The notes beneath the pieces were generated by a model that worked only from the letters and a program-made list of their open reading frames with translations, made no database searches and was not told the origin of the DNA. A stretch of 64,000 nt of DNA, from contig DATLMC010000015.1 in assembly GCA_035537435.1 (NCBI GenBank), positions 36,860-100,859 on the forward strand, read 5' to 3'. The position numbers and the translations under genes were made by a program. The stretch comes from Pyrinomonadaceae bacterium (lineage in GTDB: Bacteria; Acidobacteriota; Blastocatellia; Pyrinomonadales; Pyrinomonadaceae). Below are positions 2,471 through 31,915 of this stretch, in pieces; position 1 is the stretch's first letter, and each line of letters opens with the position of its first letter.

Positions 2471-5125
<2,655 letters not shown>

Positions 5126-5230
5126 CATCCGGAATGGGACTCACCGCTAGGGGACTCGGCGCAGCATTCGATCTATAGGGCTGCGCCCTATCGCTCCCGC
5201 GTCCGGTGAACGCGTTGCCGCCCGACCGAT

Positions 5231-5719
5231 ATGACTACCTACCTCCTGACATGGAACCCTGTTAAATGGGAGTGGGTCGATCTCCGAGACTGCATCGGCG
5301 AGGTCGCGCGCACGGGGTGCTATTCGAGCGACTGGAGCAGCGGGAACAATAAGAGTGTGGTTAAAGGCGACAGGGTCTTCCTCCTGCGCCAGGGGTTAGA
5401 GCCGCGCGGGATCTGCGGCTCGGGCTTCGCCGACTCCGGCGTCTACGAGGACGTTCACTGGAGTGAGCGCAAGGCACAGGCCGGCAAGGTGACGAGGTAC
5501 GTGAGAGTTAAGTGGGATGTCTTGTTGGATGCGGAGAACGAATCCATCTTCCCGCGCGAGTGGCTCAACGAGCCGCCGCTCTCGCGTGTCAACTGGAACA
5601 CGCAGATCTCGGGGATCAGGATTCCGGACGACGTGGCGGAGGAACTCGAAGAGAGGTGGGCCGAGTTCCTGGAGGGGAGGCGCAAAGCGTTCTCTCTTTT
5701 CGCCAACAAACTTAACTGA
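5231..5719 (+). CDS. Hypothetical small protein, possible PUA-like (EVE/SRA-like) fold
   Basis: 162 aa. The pattern YLLTWNPVKWEW...GDRVFLLRQG..PRGICGSG...HW resembles EVE/PUA-like reader domains fused to McrB/HNH-type restriction enzymes. GC looks lower than the flanks. The fold assignment is unverified. Confidence 0.5.
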   Translation: MTTYLLTWNPVKWEWVDLRDCIGEVARTGCYSSDWSSGNNKSVVKGDRVFLLRQGLEPRGICGSGFADSGVYEDVHWSERKAQAGKVTRYVRVKWDVLLDAENESIFPREWLNEPPLSRVNWNTQISGIRIPDDVAEELEERWAEFLEGRRKAFSLFANKLN

Positions 5720-5784
5720 CCAACCGGAGTAGCCTGACAAACAGTCCTGCGAGCCCGCAAGGATTGCGCCGCCGGAGGTGAAGC

Positions 5785-8778
5785 ATGGCTGACGATTTCA
5801 GATATGACGTTTTCCTGAGCCACAGCTCTAAAGACAAGGCGGTCGTGCGCCCCCTCGCTGAACGTCTGCGCGCCGACGGCGTCCGGGTGTGGTTCGACGA
5901 GTGGGAGCTGAAGCCCGGCGACAACATTCCCGCGAAGATCGAGGAGGGGCTGGAGCACTCCCGCGTGCTCGTCCTCTGCTTGTCGTCGCACGCCTTCGGT
6001 TCTGACTGGGCGCAGCTAGAGTCCGGCACCTTCCGCTTCCGCGACCCGCTCAACAAGGAGCGCCGCTTCATCCCCCTCCGCCTCGACGACGCCCCCATCA
6101 AAGGCTCGCTGGCGCAATTCAGTTACATAAACTGGCGGGCGAAAGGCCGTAAGCAGGCATACGCGAAACTTCTCGAAGCTTGCCGCCCGCCAGCAAAGCA
6201 GTCCCCAGAGGTAGAAGCGGAGGCCATAGACATTCAGGTTGCAGAAAAGGCCATCCAACTCGATTACAAGAACGTGTTTATCAATACCTACGCGTTTAGT
6301 TCAGATGGAAAGCGCGCGCTCACTAGTTCTAGCGACAGTACCGTGCGGCTGTGGGACGTGGAGATGGGGAAATGTTTATGCGTCCTCGAAGGCCATACTA
6401 ACGAAATTCAGGGTCTGGACTGGAGCGCCGATCAGAGACGAGCGCTCTCCGGCTCCCATGACAAGACCGTGCGGCTGTGGGACGTGGAGACGGGTAAGTG
6501 TTTGCGCGTCCTCGAAGGCCATAAAGACGGCGTCATGCGTGTGCAGTGGAGCGCCGATCAGAGACGAGCGCTCTCATGCTCTTGGGATAAGACCGTGCGG
6601 CTGTGGGACGTGGAGACGGGGAAATGTTTGCGCGTCCTCGAAGGCCACACGACTAATGTTAGGAGCGTGGCGTGGAGCATTGATCAGCGTCGTGCCTTCT
6701 CCGGCGACAGCAGTGGTGGCATTCGGGTGTGGGAGTTATCGGAGTTTGTCACCGAGGCGCGAGCACCAGAAAGTACCGCTCCTGTATTGCCATCCATGCC
6801 AGAGCAGGTTCAATACACGAACGCTAAAGTTCTTCTTGTTGGCGAGAGTGGTGCGGGGAAGACAGGGCTGTCGAAGGTGCTGGCGGGTGAGGAGTGGCAG
6901 CCGAGCGATTCGACGGTCGGCGCGTGGGCGACGCAGTGGAAGCTGCCGGTGGATTCCAAAGACGGCATGGAGCGGGAAATCTGGCTGTGGGATTTTGGGG
7001 GGCAGGCGGATCAGCGTCTGATCCACCAGCTCTACATGGACGAGACTGCGCTGGCGGTGCTGGTCTTCGACGGGCAGAAGGAAGACACCTTCGAGACGCT
7101 GGGGCAGTGGGATCGAGATCTCACGCGCGCCTCGCGCAAGCCGTTCTCCAAGCTGCTGGTCGCCGGTCGCGTGGACGCCGGGGGCTTGCGCGTCAGCCGC
7201 AGTCAGGTCGAAGCCTTCGCGCGCGAGCGCGGCTACACGCAGTTTCTCGAAACCAGCGCGAAGCAGAACATCTGCTGCGAAGACCTCCGGCAAGCCATCC
7301 TCGGCGGCATCCGCTGGGAGGACATTCCGTGGCGCTCCTCGCCGCTGCTCTTCAAGCGGCTCAAGGAGGAGATCGTCAGCCTCAAGGACGAGGGGCGCGT
7401 GCTGATGCGCTTCAACGAGCTGCGCGAGACGCTGCAACTGCGTCTCGCAGGCGAGGGCGCGCGCTTCACCAATGAAGAACTGAAAGCCGTGGTGAGTCTG
7501 CTGGCAGGCCCCGGCGTGGTGTGGGAGCTGAAGTTCGGCAGTTGGGTACTGCTCCAGCCCGAGCGTATTAACGCCTACGCGCAAGCAGTGATCCAGACGA
7601 TGCGCGAGGACGAGCACGAGCGCGGATGCCTGCCGGAGGAACGCGTCTTGAAGGGCGACCTCAAGTACCACTCCTCCGCCGAGCGTCTAGGGGCTGATGA
7701 GGAGCGGTTTGTACTGCTCGCCATGCACCAGACGCTCGTCGAGCGCGGACTCTGCCTGCGCGAACATACTGACACGGGGCCGCTGCTCATCTTCCCCAGC
7801 TACTACCGGCGTGAGCGGCCGGAGCTGGTGGGCCACCCGGCGGTGCTCGTGAGCTACCGCTTCAACGGCTTCCTCGACGACATCTACGCCACGCTGGTCG
7901 TCCGCCTGCACCACACGCGCCCCTTCGAGCAGGATCAGCTCTGGCGCTACGCCGCAGACTTCAAGACGCTCACCGGCAAACAACTCGGCGTGAAGATGAC
8001 CCGCCGCGCGGAAGGCGCGGGCGAGCTGGAAGTCTATTTCGATCCGGCCATCGAGGTCGGGGAGAAGATCATCTTCAGCAAGTACGTCCACGAGCACCTG
8101 TTGCAGAGCGCAAGTGATGTGGTGCGGCTGCGCTATTACGTCTGCCCGCACTGCGGGACGCCGGTGGAAAACCGGGAAGTGGCGATGCGGAAACTTGAGG
8201 AGGGCAAGAAAGACATCCTCTGCGTCAACTGCGAGAAGCGCGTCCCGCTCTGGGATCAACTTGAGGAGATGTTCGCCAGCCCGGAGATGAAGGAGCACGT
8301 GCGCCAACTTCGGGAGCAGTCAGCCGTCGTGCTCGACAACGAGAGCAAGGATCGCGCTCTAGTCGGCGACGTGATCTCGACGGTGGCGCTCGCCGGGCAG
8401 ATCAGCCGGGAGTTCAACGTGAGCGACCACGGCATCGACATGGAGATCGAGTTCAAGTCAGACGACGGCGAGGCGACGGGTCGGAAGTTGTACCTGCAAC
8501 TGAAGTCTGGCGACTCCTACCTCCGCAAGCGTAGACGCGACGGCGCGGAAGTCTTCACCATCAAGGACGAGCGCCACGCGCGCTACTGGATGGAGCAGGC
8601 GTTCCCCGTGCTGCTGGTCGTCCGCAACTCCGAGGGCGAGGTGCGCTGGATGGAAGTGCGCGACTACCTGAAGCGCGCGAGTGACGGCGGCAAGAAAGCC
8701 GTGAAGCAGATCGTCTTCGCGGGGGAGCGCCTGGACGTGATGAGCGTGCGCCGCTGGCGGGATAAGTTGCTGCGCTAA
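5785..8778 (+). CDS. Multidomain TIR - WD40(x4) - Roc (Ras-like GTPase) - COR - zinc ribbon - DUF4365/Mrr-like nuclease-fold protein
   Basis: 997 aa, with RBS GGAGGTG before ATG 5785. TIR: YDVFLSHSSKDK and SDWAQLE (aa 6-120). WD40: VRLWDVETGKCLRVLEGH repeats (aa 165-318). Roc: G1 GESGAGKT, G3 DFGGQ, G4-like GRVD, G5 ETSAK (aa 347-507). COR-like: IPWRSSPLLFKRLKEEI...YRFNGFLDDIYATLVVRLHH. Zinc ribbon: CPHC..x21..CVNC. C-terminus: DHGIDMEIEF..LYLQLKSG, typical of DUF4365. Confidence 0.85.
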   Translation: MADDFRYDVFLSHSSKDKAVVRPLAERLRADGVRVWFDEWELKPGDNIPAKIEEGLEHSRVLVLCLSSHAFGSDWAQLESGTFRFRDPLNKERRFIPLRLDDAPIKGSLAQFSYINWRAKGRKQAYAKLLEACRPPAKQSPEVEAEAIDIQVAEKAIQLDYKNVFINTYAFSSDGKRALTSSSDSTVRLWDVEMGKCLCVLEGHTNEIQGLDWSADQRRALSGSHDKTVRLWDVETGKCLRVLEGHKDGVMRVQWSADQRRALSCSWDKTVRLWDVETGKCLRVLEGHTTNVRSVAWSIDQRRAFSGDSSGGIRVWELSEFVTEARAPESTAPVLPSMPEQVQYTNAKVLLVGESGAGKTGLSKVLAGEEWQPSDSTVGAWATQWKLPVDSKDGMEREIWLWDFGGQADQRLIHQLYMDETALAVLVFDGQKEDTFETLGQWDRDLTRASRKPFSKLLVAGRVDAGGLRVSRSQVEAFARERGYTQFLETSAKQNICCEDLRQAILGGIRWEDIPWRSSPLLFKRLKEEIVSLKDEGRVLMRFNELRETLQLRLAGEGARFTNEELKAVVSLLAGPGVVWELKFGSWVLLQPERINAYAQAVIQTMREDEHERGCLPEERVLKGDLKYHSSAERLGADEERFVLLAMHQTLVERGLCLREHTDTGPLLIFPSYYRRERPELVGHPAVLVSYRFNGFLDDIYATLVVRLHHTRPFEQDQLWRYAADFKTLTGKQLGVKMTRRAEGAGELEVYFDPAIEVGEKIIFSKYVHEHLLQSASDVVRLRYYVCPHCGTPVENREVAMRKLEEGKKDILCVNCEKRVPLWDQLEEMFASPEMKEHVRQLREQSAVVLDNESKDRALVGDVISTVALAGQISREFNVSDHGIDMEIEFKSDDGEATGRKLYLQLKSGDSYLRKRRRDGAEVFTIKDERHARYWMEQAFPVLLVVRNSEGEVRWMEVRDYLKRASDGGKKAVKQIVFAGERLDVMSVRRWRDKLLR
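6340..6717 (+). repeat. Three tandem near-identical 126-bp units (WD40 blades) inside the TIR-ROCO gene
   Basis: accgtgcggctgtgggacgtggaga(t/c)ggg.aa.tgttt.tgcgtcctcgaaggcca recurs at 6340, 6466 and 6592. tggagcgccgatcagagacgagcgctctc recurs at 6421 and 6547. Confidence 0.85.
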
Positions 8779-8937
8779 AGTTTATCGTCGAATCCGGTGT
8801 CGGGCGCGACGGTCATAGCTAGCGGGCGAGGGGGGGGCGGGAGGTGAGCCGGGGCGGTAGCGGCGGCGCGTTTATCGCCTCCCCGGGTTGATCCCGTTTC
8901 CCCGCATCTTTCGCGTTATATGCCAGAGGTGGATTTT

Positions 8938-9657
8938 ATGGCAATCAACGCGAAGCTGTTACATCGCCCGTCGGATCGGGGCCTGTTCCGGGCCGCGGCG
9001 ATCCTCTTCCCGCTCGTCGTCCTGGCCGGCTACTTCAAGTCCTACTATTTCAGCGCGTTCTTCGACGTGAGGCCGGTCGCCAACGCACTCGTCCACGCGC
9101 ACGGCCTGGTGATGACGCTGTGGGTCGTTTACTTCACGGCGCAGATCTCGCTGATCCGCACGAAGAACGTCAGGCTGCACATGACCATGGGGATGGCGGG
9201 CGTCGCACTGGCCGCAGTCGTCGTCGTCGTCGGGCTCGCGACCGCTTACGACGCGCAGCTCGTGCGGGGGGCGGCTCCCGCCGGGATACCCCCCCACTCG
9301 TTCTTCCTGATCCCGGTGTTGGACATGATCCTGTTCGTCGTCTTCTTCGCCGGGGCCATCTATTACCGCAAGCGCCCGGCGGAGCATAAGACCCTGATGT
9401 TGATGACGGCGATCAACTTCATGCCGGCCGCGCTCTCGCGGACGCCCATGGTGCCGGCGCAGTTCATGCTCCACTGGGCGTTCGGCGTCCCTGCTCTCGT
9501 CGCGCTCGTCTGCCTCGGCTGGCACACGGCGAAGCACTGCCGGCTCAACAAAGTCTTCGCCGCCGCCGTGCTGCTTCTAATAGCGGCGCACCCGCTGCGA
9601 CTCGCCCTCGCCGGCTCGAAAATCTGGCTCCAGTTTGCCGCCTGGCTCGCCCCGTAG
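8938..9657 (+). CDS. Polytopic inner-membrane protein of unknown function
   Basis: About 6 hydrophobic helices. ATG 8938 follows GAGGTGG; the track ORF begins at 8920. No recognisable catalytic motif. Confidence 0.6.
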   Translation: MAINAKLLHRPSDRGLFRAAAILFPLVVLAGYFKSYYFSAFFDVRPVANALVHAHGLVMTLWVVYFTAQISLIRTKNVRLHMTMGMAGVALAAVVVVVGLATAYDAQLVRGAAPAGIPPHSFFLIPVLDMILFVVFFAGAIYYRKRPAEHKTLMLMTAINFMPAALSRTPMVPAQFMLHWAFGVPALVALVCLGWHTAKHCRLNKVFAAAVLLLIAAHPLRLALAGSKIWLQFAAWLAP

Positions 9658-9755
9658 CGGCCGCCGCCCCCGCGCCCACTAACTGACGCGGCACGACCGG
9701 CCCCGGAGACTTCGGGCGCGGTCTCCGTAGCCAGGAAAAAGATAGCGACTAAAGA

Positions 9756-9793
9756 GCGCCGCGCCGGCTCTGTGTACAGAGCCGGCGCGGCGC
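9756..9793. other. Near-perfect 17-bp-arm palindrome (hairpin or operator candidate)
   Basis: gcgccgcgccggctctg tgta cagagccggcgcggcgc. It lies about 100 nt after the membrane-protein stop and has no U-tract. Confidence 0.4.
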
Positions 9794-10127
9794 GTGCGTC
9801 CGGCGCGTCGCCTGATCGTTCGCAACCGTCGCGCGTGCGGACGAACCTGTAAAGAAAAATTCTCTTGCCCGCGCGCGCCCGCACGGTCTAGAGTTGCCGC
9901 GCCGGTTCCACATCAACAAGCAGCCTTGCACACCGCGCGAACCGGCGTCGTCAACACAAACTTTACCCACCCGTCCCAACTCGCCGCGCGCCCGCGCGGC
10001 ACATAACACCTCACCGTGAGATCGCGGGTCGTGATCTGCGTTCTCGGCACATTCTCTCTGTGCGCGCGCGGGTCGTGCCCTGCGCGTCCCTGTTAGCCGT
10101 CCGCTTGTTGCGCCGAGGAGACTTCAC

Positions 10128-11432
10128 ATGAGAACTTTTCGCAAACGCCTCGCCCTCTTCCTCTCACTCACGCTGCTCGCCCTGCTCACCTACACCTCGC
10201 CGCTCAGCCCGCGCGCGCAGGCGCAGACCTTCAACGAGACTTTCGAGAGCGGCACGAAGACCGCCTACGCCGCGGCGGACGTGCAACTCGCCACGGGCTT
10301 CTGGAACTTCAACGACGCTTTGATCGGCAACCTCTCGACGGATCGCAAAACGGGCGCGGCTTCCGCGCGCATCCGCAACGCGGGCTCCCTGTCGATGGAC
10401 TTCAACGTGCCGAGCGCGGGCACGGTCACAGTCCAGCACGCCGTCTTCGGCACGGACGGCGCGTCGTCCTGGGAGCTGTGGGCTTCGACGAACGGCGGCT
10501 CGTCTTACGTCAAGGTCGGCAACACCATCAGCACGACCTCGACCGCGCTCGCGACCGCGACCTTCACGGTCAACTCGTCGAGCCCGGTGCGCTTCTCCGT
10601 CCGCAAAGTGTCGGGCGGGGCGAACCGCATCAACGTCGACAACTTCACGATCTCGTCCGGCTCCGCGCCGCCCGCCGCCAGCGAGCACCTGACGATGGGC
10701 AACCCGACGGGCGCCGCGGTGAACACCGCTCAGCCGGACAACTACCTGCTCGACAAGCCGCAGTACGCCGCCGGCTACAGCCGCGACCTCGGCCGCCCGA
10801 ACTGGGTGAGCTGGCGCCTGTCGAGCGTGTGGCTCGGGAGCACGCCGCGCCAGGACGACTTCCGCAACGACACGACGCTCCCGGCGGGCTGGTATCAGGT
10901 GCAGGCGACCGATTACACTGGCTCCGGCTTCGACCGCGGTCACCACTGCCCGTCCGCCGACCGCACGCTGAACGTGCCGGACAACTCCGCGACCTTCCTG
11001 ATGACGAACATGATGCCGCAAGCGCCGGACAACAATCAGGGTCCGTGGGCGGCGCTCGAAACCTACTGCCGCACGCTCGTCAGCCAGGGCAACGAAGTCT
11101 ACATCGTCATGGGCGGCGCGGGCTCCGGCGGCACGGGGTCGAACGGCGGTGTGACGACGACCGTCGCCGCGGGTCACGTCGCCGTGCCGGCGAAGACGTG
11201 GAAGGTCATCCTCGTGCTGCCGGACGCGGGCGGAAACGACGTGGTGCGCGTGACGACCTCTACGCGCACCATCGCCGTCATCATGCCGAACGCGCAGGGC
11301 ATCAGGACGAACACCTGGCAGAGCTTCCGCGTGAGCGTCGATCAGGTCGAACAGTTGACGGGCTACGACTTCTTCTCGAACGTGCCCGTCGCCACGCAGA
11401 GCGTCATCGAGGCGCGGGTTGACAACCAGTGA
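10128..11432 (+). CDS. Secreted DNA/RNA non-specific endonuclease (Serratia NucA / Endonuclease_NS family) with an N-terminal beta-sandwich-like domain
   Basis: 434 aa with a signal peptide and RBS GAGGAG. Active-site GFDRGHHCPSADR (DRGH motif) and TNMMPQ. Confidence 0.85.
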   Translation: MRTFRKRLALFLSLTLLALLTYTSPLSPRAQAQTFNETFESGTKTAYAAADVQLATGFWNFNDALIGNLSTDRKTGAASARIRNAGSLSMDFNVPSAGTVTVQHAVFGTDGASSWELWASTNGGSSYVKVGNTISTTSTALATATFTVNSSSPVRFSVRKVSGGANRINVDNFTISSGSAPPAASEHLTMGNPTGAAVNTAQPDNYLLDKPQYAAGYSRDLGRPNWVSWRLSSVWLGSTPRQDDFRNDTTLPAGWYQVQATDYTGSGFDRGHHCPSADRTLNVPDNSATFLMTNMMPQAPDNNQGPWAALETYCRTLVSQGNEVYIVMGGAGSGGTGSNGGVTTTVAAGHVAVPAKTWKVILVLPDAGGNDVVRVTTSTRTIAVIMPNAQGIRTNTWQSFRVSVDQVEQLTGYDFFSNVPVATQSVIEARVDNQ

Positions 11433-11452
11433 CGCGCGCGACGTAAAACGGA

Positions 11453-11488
11453 GGCCGCCCGCCGCGTCGCGAGCCGCGGCGGGCGGCC
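11453..11488 (+). terminator. GC-rich hairpin 3' of the nuclease gene
   Basis: ggccgcccgccgcg / cgcggcgggcggcc forms a 14-bp stem 20 nt after the stop. There is no clear U-run. Confidence 0.4.
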
Positions 11489-11640
11489 GCTCAACGGATC
11501 GCACGGGAAGAAGATGAACGAAAAGGCGTACCGCGTGGGCACGATCAACCTGGCGATCTACGTCGTGGGTCGCAGCCCCGGCGGCGACTGGCTCGGCGTC
11601 TCGACGCGCGTCGTCGAGACATAGAGACCTTCGCAAGACC

Positions 11641-11777
11641 GTAGGGGCAGGGCTCGTCCCTGCCCGCTCGGGCGCGAAGGCGCGAAAGTATGAATCGTGA
11701 TCATTAAACGATGAGTGATCACGGATCGGTTGAGCGACCTGTCGGTCGCTGCGGGCGGGGACGAGCCCTGCCCCTAC
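11641..11777. repeat. REP/REPIN-like element, copy 2 (long form)
   Basis: GTAGGGGCAGGGCTCGTCCCTGCCCGC ... GCGGGCGGGGACGAGCCCTGCCCCTAC, with a central gatcatt-containing spacer as in copies 1 and 6. Confidence 0.9.
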
Positions 11778-11865
11778 AATTCTGTTCGGGGCTCTTAAGT
11801 TCTTGTAAGTCTCCGAAAGTTCGCGGGCGGCTGCGCGTGCGCCCGGCATAGGTGGCCAAGTGCTC

Positions 11866-14100
11866 ATGAAAAAAACTCAGACGCTCATCGCGCTGCTGAT
11901 CGCGTTCTCGTTCCTGCCGCGCGCGCGCGAGGCGAGCGCGCAAAGCGAGGGGCCGCGGCGCGGCATCACGGCGGAGGACTACTACTCGTTCGAGTTCCTG
12001 GGCGACCCGCACCTGTCGCCCGACGGCAGGTGGGTCGCCTACGTCTTGACGACGGTCGATCAGAAACAGAACCGCCGCGTCTCGAACATCTGGCTCGCGG
12101 CTGTCGACGGCGGCCGCGAGCCGCGGCAGTTCACGGCGAGCCCGCAGTCGTCCAGCTCGCCGCGCTGGTCGCCCGACGGCCGCTCGCTCGCCTTCCTCTC
12201 CGCGCGGCCCGAAGCGGCGGGCGTCTCGCCTTCCGCGCCGCCCGCGCCACAGGCGTCGCCGGGCGTGCCTGCCACTACGAGCCAGTCGGGCACGATTGGC
12301 GCGGCGCAGACGCCGATGCCTTCGACGAGTCCGGCGGGCTCGCCGCCGACGCCGACGACGCCGGGCGTCTCCAGCGCGCAGGCGACGGCGAGCGCCCCGG
12401 AGACCCCGCGCACGCAGGTCTACTTGCTGCCGCTCGACGGCGGCGAGGCGCGCCGCGTGACGAACCTGCGCAACGGCGTGTCGAGCTTCCAGTGGTCGCC
12501 CGACGGCACGCGCCTCGCGCTCCTGAGCCGCACGGGGCCGAGTGACACGAAAGCCCCGTCGAGCGACGTGCGCCACTACAAGCACCCCTCCTACAAGTTC
12601 AACGACACGGGCTGGTTCGACGACAAGCGCAGCCACGTCTTCGTCGTCGATGTCGCGACCGGGGCGTCGCGGCAGATCACTTCGGGCGACGACTGGAACG
12701 ACACGGACCCGCAGTGGTCGCCCGACGGGAGACGGATCGCCTTCGTCTCCGACCGCACCGGCAAAGCCTTCGACGAGAGCCGCAACACCGACGTGTGGGT
12801 CGTCAACTCGGACGGCACGGGCGCGCTCACAAAGATTTCAGATCACGACGAATCCGACGCTGGCCCGCGCTTCTCGCCCGACGGCAAGTGGATCGCGTTC
12901 ACGGGCGAGTTGCGTGATCGTGATCACCCGAAAATCTTTCTCGCGCCCGCGTCGGGCGGCGCGCCGTCGAAGTTGGCCGCGCGCGCGCTCGATCTCATCC
13001 CGTCGGGGCTCGAATGGGCAGAAGGCGGGCGCTCGATCTTCTTCGAGACGGGCGTGAAGGGCGAGTACCAGCTCTTCCGCGTGGACGTGCAGAGCGGCGA
13101 AGTCCGTCAGGTGACGACGGGCGCGCGGGCGGTGAGGAACGTGGACATCAACGACGCGGCGCGGAAGATGATCTACACCGCCAACGACTTCAAGCGCCTC
13201 GACGATCTCTACGTCGCCGGCCTCGACGGGAAGAACGAGAGGCAGATCACGCGGCTGAATCAAAGGCTCTGGGGTCAACTGCAACTCCAGGACGTGGAGC
13301 GCTTCACCTACAAGAGCGCTGACGGCTGGGACGTGGACGGCTTCCTCGTCAAGCCTCTGGGCTGGCAGGAGGGCAGGAAGTACCCGTTGATCTTGAGCGT
13401 CCACGGCGGGCCTGCCGGCCAGTACGGCGTCGACTGGTATCAGGAGTTTCAGGTCTACGCGGCGAAGGGGTGGGCCGTCCTGTTCACGAACCCGCGCGGC
13501 TCGACCGGCTACGGGCAGAAGTTCGAGCGCGGCATCGAGGGCGAGTGGGGGGGGAAGGACTACCAGGACGTGATGAACGGGGTGGACGCCGCGCTCGCGC
13601 GCTACCCGTGGATCGACCGCGAGCGCCTCGGCGTGACGGGCGGCTCTTACGGCGGCTTCATGACGAACTGGATCGTCGGCCACACGAACATCTTCAAGGC
13701 CGCCGTCACGCTGCGCAGCGTCACGAACTTCGTCTCGGACGAGGGCACGCGCGACGGGGCCTACGGGCACTCGCCCGACTTCGGCGGCGATCTCTTCGAG
13801 CGGTTCGATCTCTACTGGGATCGCTCCCCGCTCAAGTACGCGAAGAATGTTAAGACGCCGATCCTCATACTCCATTCGGATAACGACTTCCGCGTGCCGC
13901 TGGAGCAGGGCGAGCAGTGGTTCCGCGCGCTGAAGCACTACGGCGCGACCGCCGAGTTCGTCATCTTCCCGCGCGAGAACCACAACCTCACGCGCACGGG
14001 CGAGCCGAAGCACCTCGTCGAGAGCATGAACTGGCAGCTCTACTGGTTCGACCGCTACCTCAACGGCAACACGGCCGCCGTCCCGCCCGACGCGAGGTAG
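11866..14100 (+). CDS. Secreted S9-family peptidase (TolB-like beta-propeller plus prolyl oligopeptidase catalytic domain)
   Basis: Signal peptide MKKTQTLIALLIAFSF. Nucleophile VTGGSYGGFM, Asp HSDNDFRVP, His RENHNL. A Pro/Ser/Thr/Ala-rich insert is present. ATG 11866 is preferred over GTG 11860. Confidence 0.9.
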   Translation: MKKTQTLIALLIAFSFLPRAREASAQSEGPRRGITAEDYYSFEFLGDPHLSPDGRWVAYVLTTVDQKQNRRVSNIWLAAVDGGREPRQFTASPQSSSSPRWSPDGRSLAFLSARPEAAGVSPSAPPAPQASPGVPATTSQSGTIGAAQTPMPSTSPAGSPPTPTTPGVSSAQATASAPETPRTQVYLLPLDGGEARRVTNLRNGVSSFQWSPDGTRLALLSRTGPSDTKAPSSDVRHYKHPSYKFNDTGWFDDKRSHVFVVDVATGASRQITSGDDWNDTDPQWSPDGRRIAFVSDRTGKAFDESRNTDVWVVNSDGTGALTKISDHDESDAGPRFSPDGKWIAFTGELRDRDHPKIFLAPASGGAPSKLAARALDLIPSGLEWAEGGRSIFFETGVKGEYQLFRVDVQSGEVRQVTTGARAVRNVDINDAARKMIYTANDFKRLDDLYVAGLDGKNERQITRLNQRLWGQLQLQDVERFTYKSADGWDVDGFLVKPLGWQEGRKYPLILSVHGGPAGQYGVDWYQEFQVYAAKGWAVLFTNPRGSTGYGQKFERGIEGEWGGKDYQDVMNGVDAALARYPWIDRERLGVTGGSYGGFMTNWIVGHTNIFKAAVTLRSVTNFVSDEGTRDGAYGHSPDFGGDLFERFDLYWDRSPLKYAKNVKTPILILHSDNDFRVPLEQGEQWFRALKHYGATAEFVIFPRENHNLTRTGEPKHLVESMNWQLYWFDRYLNGNTAAVPPDAR

Positions 14101-25354: not shown

Positions 25355-25747
25355 TCAGCGATCTTCTACGAGCGTTCCCTGGTGGTAGACGATCTTCCAA
25401 CCTTCGGCCGTGCGACGCCAGATCGTCGACCGGCGGGTAAGGCGGCCGCCCTGATTCAGCGTGTAGGTGAGAAGGTAGTTGTCGGCGGCAATCTCAAGGC
25501 AGTGGAAGTCGTGAGTCTGCCAGTCGTCCTGAGCCCGGTTCGCGTAGCGTCTCTCAAGTTCGTCCAACACGTACTGTCGGCCATAGCGTCGCCCCGACGC
25601 GCCGACTTCCCAGAACGTGGCTTCCGTCATGCGCTCGAAGTCGGCGCGCGTCGTCCCGAACTCCGGGCGATGGAAGATCGGCTCACGCCTTATGAGTTCG
25701 TCCAGCACGCCCGAAATCTTCGGGTCTGTGATCAGGTTCGGTTCCAT
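25355..25747 (-). CDS. NTF2-like / DUF4440-family protein
   Basis: 130 aa. FWEVGASGRRY...LLTYTL......RRSTIWRRTAEGWKIVYHQGT matches the SnoaL/DUF4440 pattern. Confidence 0.6.
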   Translation of the reverse strand: MEPNLITDPKISGVLDELIRREPIFHRPEFGTTRADFERMTEATFWEVGASGRRYGRQYVLDELERRYANRAQDDWQTHDFHCLEIAADNYLLTYTLNQGGRLTRRSTIWRRTAEGWKIVYHQGTLVEDR

Positions 25748-26118
25748 GTTCGCCGAGTACCCTTTCCGGAAGACTTCCCCTCGACTCTGCCCTTACAACG
25801 AGGGGGGTGGGAGCCCAGAATAATTCTTTGTGTGTGTCCTGACGCACAGACGGCCGCTTGAGCATGGCTTACTCTGCGACATCTCACTCCTACAACAAAT
25901 GCTTACCCGACTAAGCCCGAGTCACCAGGGAGAGAAAACTGGTAACGGTGTCAGTAGCGAGTCGTTCATCTATACCTGACCGGACGCAGGTATAGTCCCC
26001 GGAACTCACGTCCTTTTCCTCGTAAACACTTTTCCCACGCCCCCATTCTATCCGGCGAGCGGCCCGGGTTCACACCAACGCGCCGCCATGATACTTATAT
26101 GATTTCAGGGGCGGAAAA

Positions 26119-26838
26119 ATGGCGCTGACACTGAAGACTCGTTTCAAATACTCAAAACTCAACACGCTGGTCTTGCGCGCCGGATACGGGTGGGGGCAAG
26201 TTACCACGAGTGGCGAAGTCTGCACCTACACCTGCGACAAGGGTATGAAAAAGCCGCCGGCAGAAATAGAAACGATCAGAGAGATCATCTCGCTGCGTAT
26301 ACAATTTTGTACCGGCCTCGACCTCGCCGCGACCTTCCTCATGCTGAGCAAAATGTGGAGCGTGAACAGGCTTCAACTGAAGAGCTGCGGCATAAAAGAG
26401 CTGCCCCCGGAGGTCGGCGCGCTCACCAACATCGTGGATTTCGACCTCGGCAACGAAGGCCAAAGCCCTAATGAGTTCACGACCTTCCCGCCCGAGTTCG
26501 CTTCCATGAAACGGCTACGGTATCTCAGGCTACACCACAACCCTCAGTTCGAAGCGTTCCCGCCGGAGGCGGCGAAAATGACCAGCTTAAGGCACATCAG
26601 CTTAAGGGGCTTTCGTTCGCTGCCGAAAAATATCGAGTTATTCCCGAACCTGGAAGATCTAAAGTTAACTTACAGCGGCATCGTCCCGAGGCAGGTCTTG
26701 CCGCTCATCGCCCGCCCGAACGGCCTCAAGTCCGTCACGGTCGGCGAGGCGTATTACGACATGTTCAAAGAACGCACCGCGGAGTACCCGGACTTTTCCG
26801 TCACCGAGGAGCAAACCTCACTCCGGGGGGATTATTGA
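26119..26838 (+). CDS. Leucine-rich-repeat (LRR) protein
   Basis: LQLKSCGIKELPPEVGALTNIVDFDL, MKRLRYLRLHHNPQFEAFPPE, MTSLRHISLRGFRSLPKNIELFPNLEDLKL. Low GC. It is the only plus-strand gene in the island. Confidence 0.6.
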   Translation: MALTLKTRFKYSKLNTLVLRAGYGWGQVTTSGEVCTYTCDKGMKKPPAEIETIREIISLRIQFCTGLDLAATFLMLSKMWSVNRLQLKSCGIKELPPEVGALTNIVDFDLGNEGQSPNEFTTFPPEFASMKRLRYLRLHHNPQFEAFPPEAAKMTSLRHISLRGFRSLPKNIELFPNLEDLKLTYSGIVPRQVLPLIARPNGLKSVTVGEAYYDMFKERTAEYPDFSVTEEQTSLRGDY

Positions 26839-26867
26839 AATCGTTCCTCGCGGGAACCCGGGCAGCA

Positions 26868-26957
26868 ATCCAACGCCCGCCGTCACCCGCGCCCCTGCGC
26901 GACGTGCATGAGAGTCACCGTGATGAGCGTCGGGTACATGCCGTCGTCGGGCGCGCC
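26868..26957. repeat. Island repeat copy iv (attC-like imperfect palindrome)
   Basis: atccaacgcccgccgtcacccgcgcccctgc...catgccgtcgtcgggcg. The central roughly 70 nt are about 80% identical to copy iii. The minus-strand end reads GTTGGAT. Confidence 0.5.
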
Positions 26958-26971
26958 GCTGGAGTCCATGT

Positions 26972-27505
26972 TCAATCGTTGGTGATGTCTTCTGTATTAC
27001 GAGAAGCTCCGCCTGTGTGCCTTTGGATCGTTCCCAACTCGCGCGTCGTCGTTTCAGTAACACTTACCGGCTCAACCAGGCGCGGCATTGCCTCAACGTC
27101 AAAACCCACGCCTTTCACACCCCCCGGCAACATCTGACGCTCCTTCATCAGGTGCAGCCGACTTTCACGCTCCTTTAACTTCTTGAAGAAGCCGCCACGA
27201 ATCAGATTCGCCAACCCAACTCCGCCGACGGTCAGCGCGCCGATCACGAAGGAAACCCAGATCCAAAGAAAAACCGGGTTCGCCAGATGCGGTAAAGTGA
27301 CGGCCCCAAAGACGATGATGAAGTTTGTCAGCATCAGGACTGTCGCCATCATCAACCCGATGCCCGTAATCTCTCGCTTCTCACGCCGAAGTTGATTATC
27401 GCTATTGGTAAGCAAGTCGGTGACAAGACCGAGCGGTAAGCCGCAGCGCGCACAGAAGCGCATATCGTCGGAAACTTGGCGGTGACCGCATTGTGGACAA
27501 AACAT
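26972..27505 (-). CDS. Zinc-ribbon domain membrane protein
   Basis: MFCPQCGHRQVSDDMRFCARCGLPL followed by 3 hydrophobic helices. GGAGG lies before the ATG. Confidence 0.6.
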   Translation of the reverse strand: MFCPQCGHRQVSDDMRFCARCGLPLGLVTDLLTNSDNQLRREKREITGIGLMMATVLMLTNFIIVFGAVTLPHLANPVFLWIWVSFVIGALTVGGVGLANLIRGGFFKKLKERESRLHLMKERQMLPGGVKGVGFDVEAMPRLVEPVSVTETTTRELGTIQRHTGGASRNTEDITND

Positions 27506-27600
27506 CTAAACCTCCAGGAAGTAACATCGTTAAGTTTGTCAAAACCTGCGTCCGGTACGTCAGTAAATTTATAGCCTATGATGCTCGTCCGTCCGGGAAC

Positions 27601-27700
27601 ATTAAACGAAGCGCCCGACGCCCGGCCTCGCCCGCGCCCCTGCACAAGATGCATGAGAGGGGCCGTGATGGGGCGTCGGGTGTATGCCATTGCTATGCGG
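27601..27700. repeat. Island repeat copy iii
   Basis: gcgcccgacgcccg pairs with ggggcgtcgggtg. The core cccgcgcccctgc..tgcatgagag..ccgtgatg..cgtcgggt.atgcc is shared with copy iv. It overlaps the last codons of the VOC gene. Confidence 0.5.
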
Positions 27701-28118
27701 CGTCCGCGCCGCCATCGACCTCCGCGTCTTTCTCTCTCTGTCGTTCGCCGAACCAGTAGCAGAGGCCGTCCGGCGCGACCACGTAAAAGACCTTCCACGA
27801 CGTGTCGTCGTGTCGCTCGATGTCGAATCCGGGCTCGCCCTTTTCCAGGCCGTTCGCCTTCAACTCGGCGAACGCCGCTTCGACGCTATCAACCTCGAAG
27901 GCGCAGCCGTCCTGGGACGGATCGCCGCCGTTCTCGGCCAAGCCTATCCGGATGCCATCTCTGCCGAGCACTGCCGACCTGTGCGGCGACCCGCCCCGCG
28001 ACAGAATCCGGAAGCCCATGACGGCCTCGTAAAAGGGGAGGGCGGCTTCCAAGTCCCCCACGGGCAGGTTCATGTTGTCGCCCTGATACCCCCGGGCGCT
28101 TTTGACTTCTGCCTTCAT
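27693..28118 (-). CDS. VOC (glyoxalase/bleomycin-resistance/dioxygenase) family protein
   Basis: 141 aa. LPVGDLEAALPFYEAVMGFRI...HRSAVLGRDGIRIGL...FEVDSVEAAFAELKANG matches the paired beta-alpha-beta-beta-beta pattern. Confidence 0.7.
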   Translation of the reverse strand: MKAEVKSARGYQGDNMNLPVGDLEAALPFYEAVMGFRILSRGGSPHRSAVLGRDGIRIGLAENGGDPSQDGCAFEVDSVEAAFAELKANGLEKGEPGFDIERHDDTSWKVFYVVAPDGLCYWFGERQREKDAEVDGGADAA

Positions 28119-28227
28119 TCCGGCCTCCAGAGCCTACGGGTAAGCATTCCGATACGTCCCACTCGTGTGATTAAGGATGAACTGTTCTCGACGGCAACGT
28201 CTAGCACCCACGACACCCCACGCAGAC

Positions 28228-28318
28228 GCATAACGCCCGGCATCAGCGGTGCGACTTCAACTTTGGAGGTAAGGGGCGCGCCGGGTACGCGTCCGCCGCA
28301 TGCCGACGCTGGGCGCGG
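28228..28318. repeat. Island repeat copy ii
   Basis: gcataacgcccggcatcagcgg ... gcatgccgacgctgggcg. It shares taacgcccggcatca and gcatgccg-N5-gggcg with copy i. Confidence 0.5.
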
Positions 28319-28337
28319 TCTACGTAACCACAGACGG

Positions 28338-28829
28338 CTACTTACTACTATCAGCCCGAACCATATCAATCACTATGGCACTAGACAGGATTAGCACGTC
28401 GTCTTCGTCCTCTACGACATCCACGCCGTACGTGTCAGTCCAGGAGAACCACTGCCTTGATACCGTAGCAACCGCCCGCTCCCCTCTGCTGAACGTAAAC
28501 TCCAGGTGCCAGAAGTCACCTTCGGCGACCAGATCATCAGGGCCGGGCACGTCAACCGTGAACACGTGCTTGAAGAATGAGAACAGTTCTTTCTTAACGA
28601 CGGCAAAAAGCTGTCCGTCTCTGTAGATCTCATAAGTCGGCCCCCACGCGAACAGTTTCTGCCGGATGAAGGCGAGTTCGTTCCCCGACATATCTCGGAA
28701 CGTCAGTTGATGACCGAAACTAAAAGCCGCCCCCTCAACCGAGAATACCTCTTGACCCTGGTCGTTCTTAATATGGAAAGCGCCGCCCAAACTGAAGAGC
28801 CTCTGTTTCATCAGATAACGCATAATCAT
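28338..28829 (-). CDS. LURP-one-related / YxjI-like (tubby C-terminal-like fold) protein
   Basis: MKQRLFSLGGAFHIKNDQGQEVFSVEG...FRDMSGNELAFIRQKLF...YEIYRDGQLFAVVKKE..F...F....EGDFW..EF is collinear with the B. subtilis YxjI pattern. Confidence 0.65.
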   Translation of the reverse strand: MIMRYLMKQRLFSLGGAFHIKNDQGQEVFSVEGAAFSFGHQLTFRDMSGNELAFIRQKLFAWGPTYEIYRDGQLFAVVKKELFSFFKHVFTVDVPGPDDLVAEGDFWHLEFTFSRGERAVATVSRQWFSWTDTYGVDVVEDEDDVLILSSAIVIDMVRADSSK

Positions 28830-28856
28830 TCCTCGTGCATATCTAAACCATACAGC

Positions 28857-28960
28857 ATCTAACGCCCGGCATCACCCGCCGGTAGACATCTGCGGAGGCT
28901 TTCGCTCTTGCCAATGACACCGGGCTCATGCCGGCCGGGTGCATGCCGTTGTCGGGCGGC
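28857..28960. repeat. Island repeat copy i
   Basis: atctaacgcccggcatcacccgccgg ... ccggccgggtgcatgccgttgtcgggcg. The long imperfect stem has single-base bulges. The minus-strand end GTTAGAT lies about 28 nt before the next ATG. Confidence 0.5.
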
Positions 28961-29063
28961 GGATTCATTAGAAGAGGTCGGGCGAGCATTACGGGGGCAT
29001 TGAACTGCCTTACTTAATCCCGCCGCCCATTGCCGAAGCGCGCAGCTTAACCTGTCGCGGAAC

Positions 29064-29663
29064 TTACTTCTTACTTTTTTGCTTGAGCGGTCTGTCGAGG
29101 GAGTCTACGACCGTCGCGATACGCGGAGCCTCCCGGAGCAGCGCTACCTTGCGACGCGCCCCGTCCACGAGCACGTCGGCGTTCTCGAAAACCTTCTTAA
29201 CTCGCTCGGCTGACTCAGGCGTAAGATTCTTTAGCGGTATGAGGATCGGGCCTTCGTCCAAGAAGGGCTGCCCGGCCACGTCCGCGGGGACGCCCGCCCG
29301 CGCCTCATTACTGAACGCCCCGAGGGGGATGGCGTTGAGATCGCGGTAGAGCGTGTAAGCCTTCTTCTTGCCATGATACATGGACACGAGGTCAGCGCCG
29401 CCACGGCTTTGTGCCCACTCCTCCACGGCGATCCCGTCGCCCCGTGTCGTAATCCAGACCCTCACTAGAGGGTTGGGAGGGTTCATGCCGGCCGGGCAAA
29501 GTATATAATCGAAGTAAACGTAGTCGTGCTCGATCAGTTCCCAGTTCCGCTCCGACCGCTCGCCCTGCTCGCACTTGGACTGCTTCTGTTGCCCGAATCC
29601 AGTGCCCGCCGGGGCTACGGCTAAACCTGCGCCGAACAGAGATGTCAGAAAAATCTTGCGCAT
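29064..29663 (-). CDS. Secreted hypothetical protein
   Basis: ATG 29663 is preceded by GAGGAGG. Signal peptide MRKIFLTSLFGAGLAVAPAG. No recognised domain. Confidence 0.5.
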   Translation of the reverse strand: MRKIFLTSLFGAGLAVAPAGTGFGQQKQSKCEQGERSERNWELIEHDYVYFDYILCPAGMNPPNPLVRVWITTRGDGIAVEEWAQSRGGADLVSMYHGKKKAYTLYRDLNAIPLGAFSNEARAGVPADVAGQPFLDEGPILIPLKNLTPESAERVKKVFENADVLVDGARRKVALLREAPRIATVVDSLDRPLKQKSKK

Positions 29664-29699
29664 GGACGCCTCCTCTGGAACCACTGTCACCCTTCAGCC

Positions 29700-29801
29700 G
29701 CCTAACACCTTAGACTAGCCGCGGCCGCCCGACGCCTGAATTAACCGGCGAGCTATCAACTTCAAAGACAAGAGACCCGCTGATCGCGCGTCCGGTTGAA
29801 T
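29700..29801. repeat. Island repeat copy v (most divergent)
   Basis: Plus strand gcctaac ... gttgaat, matching RYYYAAC ... GTTRRRY. It shares ccgcccgacgcc with copy iii. The internal pairing is weak. Confidence 0.35.
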
Positions 29802-29807
29802 GAGTTG

Positions 29808-30326
29808 TTATGACCCGCGTTGTCGCTCTCTGTAGTAGTGTTCGCGGACTTTCGCTTGCCACTTTAGAAACACCTCAGTCAAGGCTGATTTATTTTCCTT
29901 AGTCATTCTCGGTTTGGGCATTTTGTGCACAAAGACATCAGTGACTCCGCGGTCAAAAATCCCGCCTGATATGCCGTCTTCTCTGAAAACCAAGAGTGGG
30001 AGACCTAACGAATAAAGAATGCCTGACTCCAAATGATTCCAAGCTGTAGGAAATGTTACGGAGCGGGCGGTTCTCTGTTCTTTTGTACCGCGCTTCCAGA
30101 TAATTGACCTGCTCATAGCTTGCTCGAACCCAAGTATTACTCCGCCCGAGCAATGAGTCGCAAGTACGTACACTTCCCTTAAAGGCAGATCCGTCGGGTA
30201 ATCTGATCTGCCAAGCGCACGTGGCTCAAACCTAAGCATGTCCAGCTCCCTCAAAATAATGCGCCTGCAATTCTCTTGCGTTGGGTTGAGAGCAGTAGGA
30301 CAAGATACAAATACTGGTATTCTCAT
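29808..30326 (-). CDS. Hypothetical protein, possible TIR-like / nucleoside 2-deoxyribosyltransferase-like Rossmannoid fold
   Basis: 172 aa and the lowest GC in the window. MRIPVFVSCP...VILGFEQ...PTAWNHLESGILYSLGLPLLVFRE resembles the NDT/TIR-like pattern. Unverified. Confidence 0.45.
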   Translation of the reverse strand: MRIPVFVSCPTALNPTQENCRRIILRELDMLRFEPRALGRSDYPTDLPLREVYVLATHCSGGVILGFEQAMSRSIIWKRGTKEQRTARSVTFPTAWNHLESGILYSLGLPLLVFREDGISGGIFDRGVTDVFVHKMPKPRMTKENKSALTEVFLKWQAKVREHYYRERQRGS

Positions 30327-30352
30327 AAATCACATCCTTCGCAGGTGCATAA

Positions 30353-31915
30353 CTAGTATTCTACCGCGGGAGTGACGCGCAGGTCGCGCCCGGTCATCTC
30401 GGCGGGCTGTGGGATGCCGAGGAGCGCGAGCATGGTGGGCGCAACGTCTTCGAGCGCGCCGCCTTCGCGGAGGGTCGCGCCGCGCGCGGCTTCGTCGACG
30501 AGGAGGAGGGGGACGGGGTTGGTGGTGTGTGCGGTGTGCGGCTCGCCCGTCGCGGGGTCGATCATCTGCTCGCAGTTGCCGTGATCGGCCGTGATGATCG
30601 TGCGGCCCCGCGCCGTCTTGAGCGCCTTCGTAATCCAGCCCAGACAAGTATCGACGTGCTGCACCGCCTCGATGGTCTTTTCGAGATTGCCGGTGTGGCC
30701 GACCATGTCGGGGTTGGCGAAGTTGATGATGAACACGTCCGTCTCGCGCTCGTCTATCGCGCGCAGGATTTTGTCCGTGAGCGGGTAGGCCGACATCTCC
30801 GGCTTGAGGTCGTAGGTGGCGACCCTCGGCGAGGGCACGAGGAGCCGCCGCTCGTGCGCGAACTCGCGCTCCGCGCCGCCGTTGAAGAAGTAGGTCACGT
30901 GCGCGTACTTCTCCGTCTCCGCGAGACGGTAGTTGCGGACGCCGACGGCGGCGAAGACTTCCGCCAGGATGTTGACGGGCTGCGTCGGCGGGAAGGCGAC
31001 GGGCAGCGGGAACGTCTTGTCGTAGACGGCGAAGCAGACGAAGTGCGCGTGCGGGCGGTTCGGGGTGGGGAACTCCTCGAAGCCCGCGACGGCGAGCGCG
31101 TCCGTGATCTGGCGCGCGCGGTCGGCGCGGAAGTTGAAGAAGACGACCGAGTCGCCGTCAGAAATCGTGGCGACCGGACTGCCGTCGCCGCGCGTGACGA
31201 CGATGGGCTCGACGAACTCGTCCGTCACGCCCCGCGCGAAAGAGTTTCTGATCGCCTCGACCGCGTCGGCCGCGCGCGCGCCCTCACCGTTAACTAGAAG
31301 TTTGTACGCGCGCTCCGTCCGCTCCCAGCGCTTGTCGCGATCCATCGCGTAGTAGCGACCGACGACCGACGCGACTTCGCCGACGCCGATCTCGGCGCAC
31401 TTGTCGCGCATGGCGGCGACGTAGCGGTCTGCGGAAGAGGGCGGCGTGTCGCGCCCGTCGAGGAAGCAGTGGACGTAGACCCGCCGAAGCCCGCGCTTCT
31501 CGGCCATCCGCAGCAGCGCGTAGGCGTGCTCCTGCGATGAGTGGACGAGGCCGTCGGAGGTGAGGCCGATGAGGTGGAGCGCGCGGTCGTGCCTGGCGGC
31601 GCTGTCGAGCGCGGCGTTAAGAGCGAGGTTCGAGAAGAACTCGCCCGTCTTGATCTCGTGGTTGATGCGCTCAAGGTCTGTGCGCACGACGCGCCCCGCG
31701 CCCATGCAGAGGTGCCCGACGTTGGAGTTGCCCATCACGCCCGCCGGCAGCCCGACGCACTCGCCCGAAGCCTCGATCAGAGTGTGCGGGTATTTTTCTA
31801 ACAGCTCGTCGTAGAAGGGCATCGAGGCTAACGCGACGGCGTTGCCCTCCCGGCGCGTGCTGTAGCCGAAGCCGTCGAGGATGATGAGCGCGAGCGGTCC
31901 CTGTCTGTCAGTCAA
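30353..31915 (-). CDS. gpmI: 2,3-bisphosphoglycerate-independent phosphoglycerate mutase
   Basis: 520 aa. [22 protein letters not shown] motifs. Confidence 0.95.

Follow-up and report, generated by a model that had tools for sequence, protein, structure and literature searches.

A ROCO GTPase flanked by TIR and DUF4365 domains in a Pyrinomonadaceae bacterium: a member of a large family of putative NLR-like abortive-infection receptors

Prokaryotic proteins that join a Roc-type GTPase (also termed AP-GTPase) to a COR domain have been predicted to form counter-invader systems, in which rapidly evolving leucine-rich repeats (LRRs) are combined with at least 24 alternative effector domains, including TIR (Kaur, Iyer, Burroughs and Aravind, eLife 2021, Fig. 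6D; PMC8195603). These systems are known computationally only. In a 64,000-nucleotide stretch of the genome of a Pyrinomonadaceae bacterium (contig DATLMC010000015.1; the whole stretch is hereafter called the window), one gene encodes a protein of this kind, with an N-terminal TIR domain, a WD40 array, a Roc GTPase, a COR domain, a zinc ribbon and a C-terminal DUF4365 nuclease domain in a single polypeptide (Table 1). With moderate confidence, we interpret the family to which this gene belongs as a large group of horizontally mobile, single-protein, NLR-like abortive-infection receptors that are built on a ROCO GTPase and carry two effectors activated by oligomerization.

The systems described by Kaur and colleagues resemble the window protein in their Roc and COR core, in fast-evolving sensor repeats N-terminal to this core and in variable effectors (TIR, restriction endonuclease-fold, caspase and calcineurin-like domains, among others), all within a single polypeptide. 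They differ in having an LRR sensor and C-terminal effectors, whereas the window protein has WD40 repeats, an N-terminal TIR, a C-terminal DUF4365 and a zinc ribbon after COR. With a repeat sensor, GTPase, COR domain and conflict-type effectors, the latter swapped among relatives, the window protein falls within the prokaryotic AP-GTPase-COR conflict systems. The source data of the same study list NIM12342.1, NIR05736.1, NIM12946.1 and HCS91914.1 as 'TIR+BetaPropeller+AP-GTPase'; NCBI gives two of these the name 'DUF4365 domain-containing protein', and COR, zinc ribbon and DUF4365 are not annotated there (PMC8195603). Judged by architecture and names, not by sequence, these proteins very probably belong to the family of the window gene. 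A first-pass annotation of the window had put the gene forward as the top candidate for a new system. This cannot be maintained, since the gene belongs to a very large family whose probable members were already tabulated in 2021. Two related statements of that annotation hold, namely that no system with this architecture has been characterized experimentally (none was found in the literature or in PADLOC) and that combinations of ROCO and TIR had been noted only computationally, which the predictions of Kaur and colleagues fit. The window gene thus belongs to a computationally known, experimentally untouched kind.

The open reading frame (ORF) starts with ATG and remains intact over 997 aa, as first described, and every motif quoted in that description sits at the claimed residues of the translation: YDVFLSH at 7-13, DWAQLE at 74-79, GESGAGKT at 353-360, DFGGQ at 403-407, AGRVD at 460-464, ETSAK at 489-493, CPHC at 787-790, CVNC at 813-816, DHGIDMEIEF at 881-890 and LQLKSG at 904-909. 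The six modules had all been called correctly. Four of them (TIR_2, WD40, Ras/Roc and DUF4365) exceed their own Pfam thresholds, COR is recognized by fold comparison and the zinc ribbon by conservation of its cysteines. PADLOC v2 and NCBIfam returned no whole-protein match to a known system and gave domain-level matches alone, to ThsB, Aga_TIR, PDC-S66 and retron-TIR (all in the TIR domain) and to Aga_REase (in DUF4365). A sequence search of the PDB with the whole protein was dominated by WD40 matches, while the part from Roc to the end retrieved only Rabs. The full-length AlphaFold2 (AF2) model has a predicted local distance difference test score (pLDDT) of 80.5.

Table 1. Coordinates of the gene, its modules and other features of the window (positions in nucleotides of the window; residues of the 997-aa protein).
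Feature	Position	Strand	Residues	Description	Basis
Whole gene, TIR-WD40(4)-Roc-COR-ZnR-DUF4365	5785..8778	+		997 aa	ORF list and translation, Pfam, AF2
TIR domain	5803..6189	+	7-135	WxxxE motif, W75..E79	Pfam TIR_2, PDB relatives, conservation
WD40 array	6271..6744	+	163-320	Four blades; presumed sensor, short allele	Pfam WD40 x4, 42-aa units
126-bp tandem DNA repeat	6340..6647	+		2.4 copies, 85% match, beneath the WD40 units	Tandem Repeats Finder (TRF)
Roc GTPase	6805..7299	+	341-505	P-loop GESGAGKT (K359), DFGGQ, G4 variant AGRVD, ETSAK	Pfam, Foldseek
COR domain (modelled fold)	7300..8133	+	506-783	COR-A winged-helix and COR-B alpha/beta	AF2, Foldseek
Zinc ribbon (ZnR)	8134..8250	+	784-822	Four cysteines: C787, C790, C813, C816	Cys conservation
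Linker helix	8257..8391	+	825-869	Long single helix joining zinc ribbon to DUF4365 (helices 825-831, 833-869)	AF2
DUF4365 nuclease domain	8395..8775	+	871-997	DREN / Mrr-like PD-(D/E)xK	Pfam, PDB, conservation
Segment deleted in the L031 copy	6455..8315			1.86 kb
Upstream ORF	5231-5719	+		162 aa; N-terminal motif 'YLLTWNPVKWEW'; 65-bp gap to gene
Downstream ORF	8920-9657			245-aa multi-pass membrane protein, no family match
Downstream segment lacking in L031	8832-9752
S9 prolyl-oligopeptidase-family protein	2471-5125	+		Q/S/E-rich insert in N-terminal half
Endonuclease_NS	10128-11432	+		DNA/RNA non-specific endonuclease, E 3e-56	
Counterpart of 36-aa NuiA-like gene	~11514-11624				Offset from sister contig L001
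Low-GC patch	25500-30500			GC 0.536-0.58
LRR protein	26119-26838			In low-GC patch
Zinc-ribbon protein	26972-27505	-		In low-GC patch
LURP-one-related protein	28338-28829	-		In low-GC patch

The switch of the window protein is a Ras-like G domain with G1-G5 motifs (Pfam Ras, E 3e-20; Roc, E 2e-16; aa 348-501), directly followed by COR. Its motifs are invariant across the family, ETSAK included, with little or no variation of K359 in the P-loop and of DFGGQ between the two clades, and its G4 motif is of the form GRxD, not NKxD, with the Asp retained. The region of about 505-865 gave no COR match in Pfam, NCBIfam or PADLOC. A two-clade alignment of 74 sequences was built and aa 336-997 were modelled by AF2 (mean pLDDT 84.4; predicted template modelling score, pTM, 0.79). 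When this model was compared with the PDB by Foldseek, the top 27 matches were all ROCO proteins: LRRK1 (8e05, E 2e-20), the Chlorobium tepidum Roco (CtRoco) as LRR-Roc-COR (6hlu, E 8e-20, 516 columns) and as RocCOR (3dpu, E 2e-19, TMt 0.67, 511 columns), LRRK2 (many entries, E 1e-18 to 6e-12), M. barkeri Roco2 (MbRoco2; 4wnr, E 1e-13) and the isolated COR domain 3dpt (E 3e-11, TMt 0.66). The matches to LRRK1, CtRoco, LRRK2 and MbRoco2 span 511-690 columns, and plain Rabs follow only from rank 28 onward (E about 1e-10, about 170 columns). As Roc-COR structures outrank plain GTPases, the 997-aa protein is a bona fide ROCO protein and its middle region is, on the predicted structure, a genuine COR domain. 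The first-pass call of a COR-like region, for which Pfam offers no support, is thereby confirmed by the AlphaFold and Foldseek comparison that had been suggested for it.

CtRoco, LRRK1 and LRRK2 share with the window protein the Roc-COR fold, the P-loop, the DxxGQ and SAK motifs and a repeat domain placed before Roc. They differ from it in sequence (about 14-18% identity, with the Pfam COR profiles silent here and a GRxD G4 motif) and in composition, the window protein having no kinase and carrying an added TIR, nuclease and zinc ribbon. According to a 2019 review, all prokaryotic Rocos then known were of the form LRR-Roc-COR (PMC6337361). The likeness to the STAND/NLR antiphage proteins (Avs, bNACHT and TIR-NLR) is one of design, as there too a single chain combines sensor repeats, an NTPase as switch and a death effector; here the NTPase core is not homologous, being a Ras-like GTPase with COR, and effectors lie at both termini. 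TIR and Mrr-like/DUF4365 nucleases both serve as effectors of such STAND/NLR-like proteins. No STAND core (NACHT, NB-ARC or AP-ATPase) was found in the window protein by Pfam, and the PADLOC TIR-NLR match covers the TIR domain only (model positions 4-73 of 824), so that the switch had rightly been described as a ROCO GTPase and not a STAND ATPase.

Both termini carry domains with conserved catalytic residues, as had been proposed from the motifs. At the N terminus, the TIR domain (Pfam TIR_2, aa 9-130, E 4e-29) has AbTir, PdTIR and BtpA/TcpB as its best solved relatives (PDB, E 3e-16 to 1e-11), and W75-A-Q-L-E79 aligns with W204..E208 of AbTir. This alpha-C 'WxxxE' motif is needed for the NADase activity of most bacterial TIRs (PMC11374754). 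Over 61 sequences of the family W75 is invariant, while E79, R22 and D38 (the latter two being the equivalents of AbTir R151 and D167) are kept in at least 90%. With a TIR fold and the catalytic Glu in an alpha-C WxxxE motif, the domain looks catalytically competent. TIR NADases require self-association, as in the SPARTA system.

At the C terminus, DUF4365 (Pfam, aa 871-993, E 2e-22) presents D881, D885, E889, Q905 and K907, of which D881, D885, Q905 and K907 are invariant. The region is matched by PADLOC Aga_REase, a nuclease associated with short prokaryotic Argonautes (pAgos), and by the solved structure 9qbq ('DUF4365 domain-containing protein'). The catalytic residues of the SPARDA nuclease DREN are D41/Q60/K62; monomers of this enzyme are inactive, and collateral nuclease activity arises only once filament formation forces them into tetramers, as shown for NbaSPARDA only (PMC12205087). 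The D…QxK motif of DREN is also present in the window protein, where DUF4365, judged by these residues, looks catalytically competent. Since DREN needs tetramers and TIR needs self-association, both ends of the protein appear to be proximity-activated enzymes. Between COR and the linker helix lies the zinc ribbon, for which all Pfam zinc-ribbon matches are sub-threshold; C787, C790 and C813 do not vary in either alignment, and C816 does not vary in one of the two (A1). All catalytic and metal-binding residues are preserved in the window allele.

SPARDA (short pAgo with DREN/DUF4365-APAZ) and SPARTA (short pAgo with TIR-APAZ) use the same two effector domains: PADLOC Aga_REase and Aga_TIR match the C- and N-terminal domains, respectively, the effectors are activated by induced oligomerization, and DREN D41/Q60/K62 corresponds to the D..QxK of the window protein. 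In SPARDA and SPARTA, however, a guide-loaded Argonaute is the sensor and each system has one effector, whereas WD40 and a GTPase are combined here with both effectors in one chain. The window gene is not a short pAgo system, as the PADLOC matches are confined to the effector domains and no Argonaute occurs among recurrent neighbour families. Nor is it Thoeris, as similarity to ThsB exists at the level of TIR only and no partner gene is conserved across loci.

The presumed sensor is the WD40 array (Pfam, four repeats, E 1e-37), for which AF2 predicts 16 strands with pLDDT 93-98. Across 437 in-register 42-aa units from 90 proteins of the family, the framework TVRLWDVETGxCLRVLEGH…SGSxDx is nearly constant, while entropy peaks at unit positions 21, 22, 24, 40 and 42. 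These positions line the top, ligand-binding face of WD40 propellers. Units are 65% identical within one protein vs 53% between proteins, which indicates concerted evolution. Between the window protein and its closest relatives, identity amounts to 86-94.5% from Roc to the end, 71-87% in TIR, 68-82% in the WD40 framework and 0-40% at the hypervariable positions; the sensor is thus hypervariable on a conserved chassis. Hypervariable WD40 repeats with concerted evolution are a hallmark of fungal incompatibility NLRs. The fungal NWD proteins HET-E/D/R are alike in that their tandem WD40 units are highly similar, differ at a few hypervariable positions, evolve in concert and vary in number, and unlike in being eukaryotic and in having a NACHT ATPase and a HET effector domain, the window protein being a ROCO protein. 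Blade number was estimated from the distance between TIR and P-loop in 142 full-length relatives, of which 122 have seven blades, about 9% have 2-6 and some have 14. The four blades counted in the first-pass annotation are therefore correct as a number, but represent an atypical short allele in an eroding lineage and not a design feature.

The family is large and widely distributed. A search with the part from Roc to the end retrieved 1,858 proteins, the top 120 of which are 80-95% identical and mostly 1,120-1,150 aa long; a second search gave 1,540 matches, and the architecture is shared by a second clade of about 49% identity. An exhaustive search with the COR-ZnR segment yielded 1,912 clusters at 50% identity, of which 495 have E≤1e-30. 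Among the best 150 of these matches, nearly all full-length proteins are of the form TIR-WD40(7 or 14 blades)-Roc-COR-ZnR-DUF4365, and a minority have extra modules (AAA_21/AAA_15 ABC-type ATPases, AAA_35 or ATPase_2-like ATPases, a receiver domain or multiple DUF4365 copies). Loci in reference genomes, at 60-85% identity, occur in Acidobacteriota, Polyangia, Armatimonadota, Deferribacteres, Cyanobacteria, Alpha- and Gammaproteobacteria, Actinobacteria and Poribacteria, and members of the second clade occur in addition in Verrucomicrobiota, Planctomycetota, Gemmatimonadota and Nitrotoga. Identities between phyla of 70-85%, and of up to 70-95% among the clusters found with the COR-ZnR segment, are a sign that the gene has moved horizontally. 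A search of a phage collection gave a short DUF4365-like match alone and no sign of phages carrying the gene.

More distant relatives show that the C-terminal slot can be exchanged. Genes on cyanobacterial plasmids encode the WD40-Roc-COR-ZnR chassis at about 33% identity, with the zinc ribbon kept and other domains after it. Calothrix BAZ36750, which adjoins a phage integrase, has a C-terminal TIR in place of DUF4365; a relative from Nostoc sp. C057 has a metallophosphoesterase and further domains after the zinc ribbon, and one from N. flagelliforme has these together with NACHT. DUF4365 therefore occupies a swappable effector slot, and since TIR is the sole recognizable effector of the Calothrix protein, a role as effector is supported for both TIR and DUF4365. 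In several other members the C terminus is multiplied or extended. P0304 (1,727 aa) has five tandem DUF4365 copies after the zinc ribbon and P0290 has two; an ORF of 1,711 aa (8627-13762 of locus L022) has a long C-terminal extension, as do P0246 and P0242 with HEAT and an AAA_21/AAA_15 ABC-type ATPase, and P0273, P0307 and P0310 end in an ATPase_2/AAA_22-like module. These multi-DUF4365 and extended members are either real fusions or read-through of neighbouring genes.

From this organization we infer a ligand, the direction of the GTP switch, oligomerization, two enzyme activities and an antiviral role as follows. The WD40 propeller, normally of seven blades with five hypervariable positions each, would bind an invader-derived ligand, probably a phage protein. 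The signal would be passed to Roc-COR, whose nucleotide state would control self-association, by analogy with the coupling of GTP binding and hydrolysis to a dimer/monomer cycle in CtRoco and LRRK2 (PMC6337361). The resulting oligomer would cluster the N-terminal TIRs into active NADase sites and the C-terminal DUF4365 domains into an active nuclease oligomer, and loss of NAD+ (possibly with formation of cyclic ADP-ribose (cADPR) isomers) and indiscriminate nucleic-acid cleavage would then halt or kill the infected cell.

Several observations weigh against such a receptor. A literature search yielded no experiments on ROCO-based antiphage systems, and the genomes carrying the family are all metagenome-assembled genomes (MAGs) or enrichments, whose taxonomic labels may include binning errors. 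With GRxD in place of NKxD at G4, nucleotide specificity is assumed. The ratio of nonsynonymous to synonymous change (pN/pS) is 0.84 at hypervariable WD40 codons vs 0.36 in the framework, but synonymous sites between units are saturated and positive selection at these codons is therefore not demonstrable. The window copy, with four blades, falls short of a closed propeller of at least seven blades and cannot make the usual seven-blade structure, and a sister assembly carries a frameshift (see below). The defence-island signal of the family is weak. Among the eight loci with annotated neighbours (within 10 kb), the context is housekeeping-like in three (the window, L037 and L039), and PADLOC gave about five bona fide defence matches among 121 neighbour ORFs: one PD-Lambda-2 component, type II methyltransferases at two loci and PDC-S03 at two loci. 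The other five of the eight do have toxin-antitoxin (TA) or abortive-infection (Abi) modules or transposases nearby, namely HepT/MNT, HigBA-like, VapBC and RelE/MqsA-like in L035, AbiEii and VapBC in L036 (Nitrotoga), a PIN toxin in L002, a DDE transposase and DUF433/DUF5615 in L040 and an IS200-like transposase in L038. The survey of homologues for defence-island neighbourhoods, which had been recommended at first pass, has this weak signal as its outcome. These housekeeping surroundings, the similarity of WD40 hypervariability to that of the fungal HET-E/NWD incompatibility NLRs, the proposal that Roco proteins act as GTP sensors (PMC6337361) and the production of cADPR isomers by AbTir-type TIRs (PMC11374754) would also suit a family that is not antiviral at all, consisting of ROCO signalling or self/non-self proteins (allorecognition or programmed cell death), or of sensors of GTP level or stress with TIR as signal generator or scaffold. 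We regard this as distinctly improbable, because both destructive effector types are used in proven antiphage systems (TIR in SPARTA and Thoeris, DUF4365 in SPARDA), no partner gene is present to read a TIR signal, defence genes typically swap effectors and move between phyla, as this family does, and TA/Abi modules and transposases do occur as neighbours.

The reading of the family as abortive-infection receptors is compatible with a different fate for the window copy itself, which may be weakened, inactive or mis-assembled in its repeat. The lineage is visibly losing the gene. The sister contig L001 (JGI), with an identical C-terminal part and 99% nucleotide identity, has a fifth WD40 unit and a 1-bp frameshift, which account for a truncated gene call of 703 aa at JGI. 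In L031, a syntenic Pyrinomonadaceae MAG whose flanking genes encode proteins of 88-94% identity, the gene is a pseudogene with an internal deletion and a broken frame (Table 1). The 126-bp repeat is the site both of the length difference from L001 and of the L031 deletion breakpoint. Together with the predominance of seven blades among relatives, these losses suggest that the window gene could be a decaying or inactive allele whose sensor was crippled by contraction from seven to four blades, the family itself being possibly functional. This is a serious possibility, although the chances lean against it: the 997-aa frame is intact with every catalytic and metal-binding residue kept, AF2 folds the four blades with high pLDDT, and short arrays recur in the family (P0183 has two blades), so that a short array may be a normal, reversible state. 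The four-blade count could also have arisen in assembly, if near-identical 126-bp units of a gene with more blades were collapsed in a short-read metagenome. The units have identical runs of about 57 nt in common, are 85% identical overall, and differ by one unit and one base between two assemblies of essentially one population. Such an artefact seems unlikely, since the 15% divergence of units is resolvable with long k-mers, the junctions are in frame with regular 42-aa units, and multi-megabase contigs also carry short arrays; as the two-blade P0183 lies on a 7.9-Mb contig, short arrays are not purely assembly artefacts.

The gene has no conserved partner or operon, no Pfam family being present in more than 3 of 19 loci (121 neighbour ORFs). 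Neither flanking ORF matches any PADLOC model. The 162-aa upstream ORF was rejected as a partner: nothing in Pfam, NCBIfam, PADLOC or the PDB matches it, and L031 is the only other locus where it adjoins the gene, remaining intact there (94% aa identity) despite the deletion in the gene. The downstream membrane protein was likewise rejected, as it is missing from L031 and all other loci; the segment around it lacking in L031 shows that the locus is prone to insertion and deletion on both sides of the gene. The picture is that of a self-contained, mobile accessory gene. Horizontal acquisition had also been proposed from a lower-GC patch at the gene. The dip is real (0.623 for the ORF and 0.575 for its WD40 part vs a window mean of 0.672, sd 0.048) but modest, a deeper one lying at 25.5-30.5 kb, and the GC argument is accordingly weak; acquisition is better backed by near-identity across phyla and the lack of synteny. 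Scanning for promoters and terminators gave nothing exceeding chance.

Some further features of these loci were recorded. In L031 an additional gene (4967-8434, minus strand), which encodes a secreted-looking protein of 1,155 aa, separates the S9 peptidase gene from the 162-aa ORF; the window lacks this gene, a further sign of a variable locus. The S9 peptidase has a long low-complexity Q/S/E-rich insert (…QQSQQQTAQQSQQQSQQ…), which is also present in L031. In three related Acidobacteriota (L009, L020 and L032) the gene lies immediately upstream of uvrB (at about 12.1-14.1 kb in each locus), which explains the spurious PADLOC helicase matches among neighbours; PbeA, DinG and mREase_IV were rejected as UvrB cross-matches. 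Downstream in the window is an Endonuclease_NS gene, and in L001 a 36-aa gene matching the NuiA nuclease inhibitor (8769-8879 of that contig) follows it; the two look like a NucA/NuiA-like pair of nuclease and inhibitor. The strongest low-GC patch of the window contains small accessory-looking genes, several of them ORFs without a family (Table 1), and may be a second acquired island.

Bacterial ROCO "conflict systems" have so far been predictions only, and the present family offers a clean test of the role of prokaryotic Rocos and hence of the ancestral function of the Roc-COR module that is mutated in Parkinson's disease (LRRK2). It consists of a single gene with no partner, has two effectors whose action is easily read out as loss of NAD+ and degradation of DNA, an obvious sensor surface and clear point mutants, and is available in thousands of natural variants. 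The family may be a working GTP-gated innate-immune receptor of bacteria, and the first experimentally tractable case in which a ROCO (LRRK2/DAPK-type) switch operates a pattern-recognition receptor, with one ligand-induced oligomerization firing both TIR NADase and DUF4365 DNase and with changes of the array between 2 and 14 blades tuning or toggling recognition. Immune sensing would then be the ancestral function of Roc-COR proteins. We advance this reading tentatively, at somewhat less than an even chance. Should the family prove protective against phage, a small GTPase would stand beside the STAND ATPases as a switch of bacterial NLR-like immunity, and nature would provide a case of abortive infection by two effectors.

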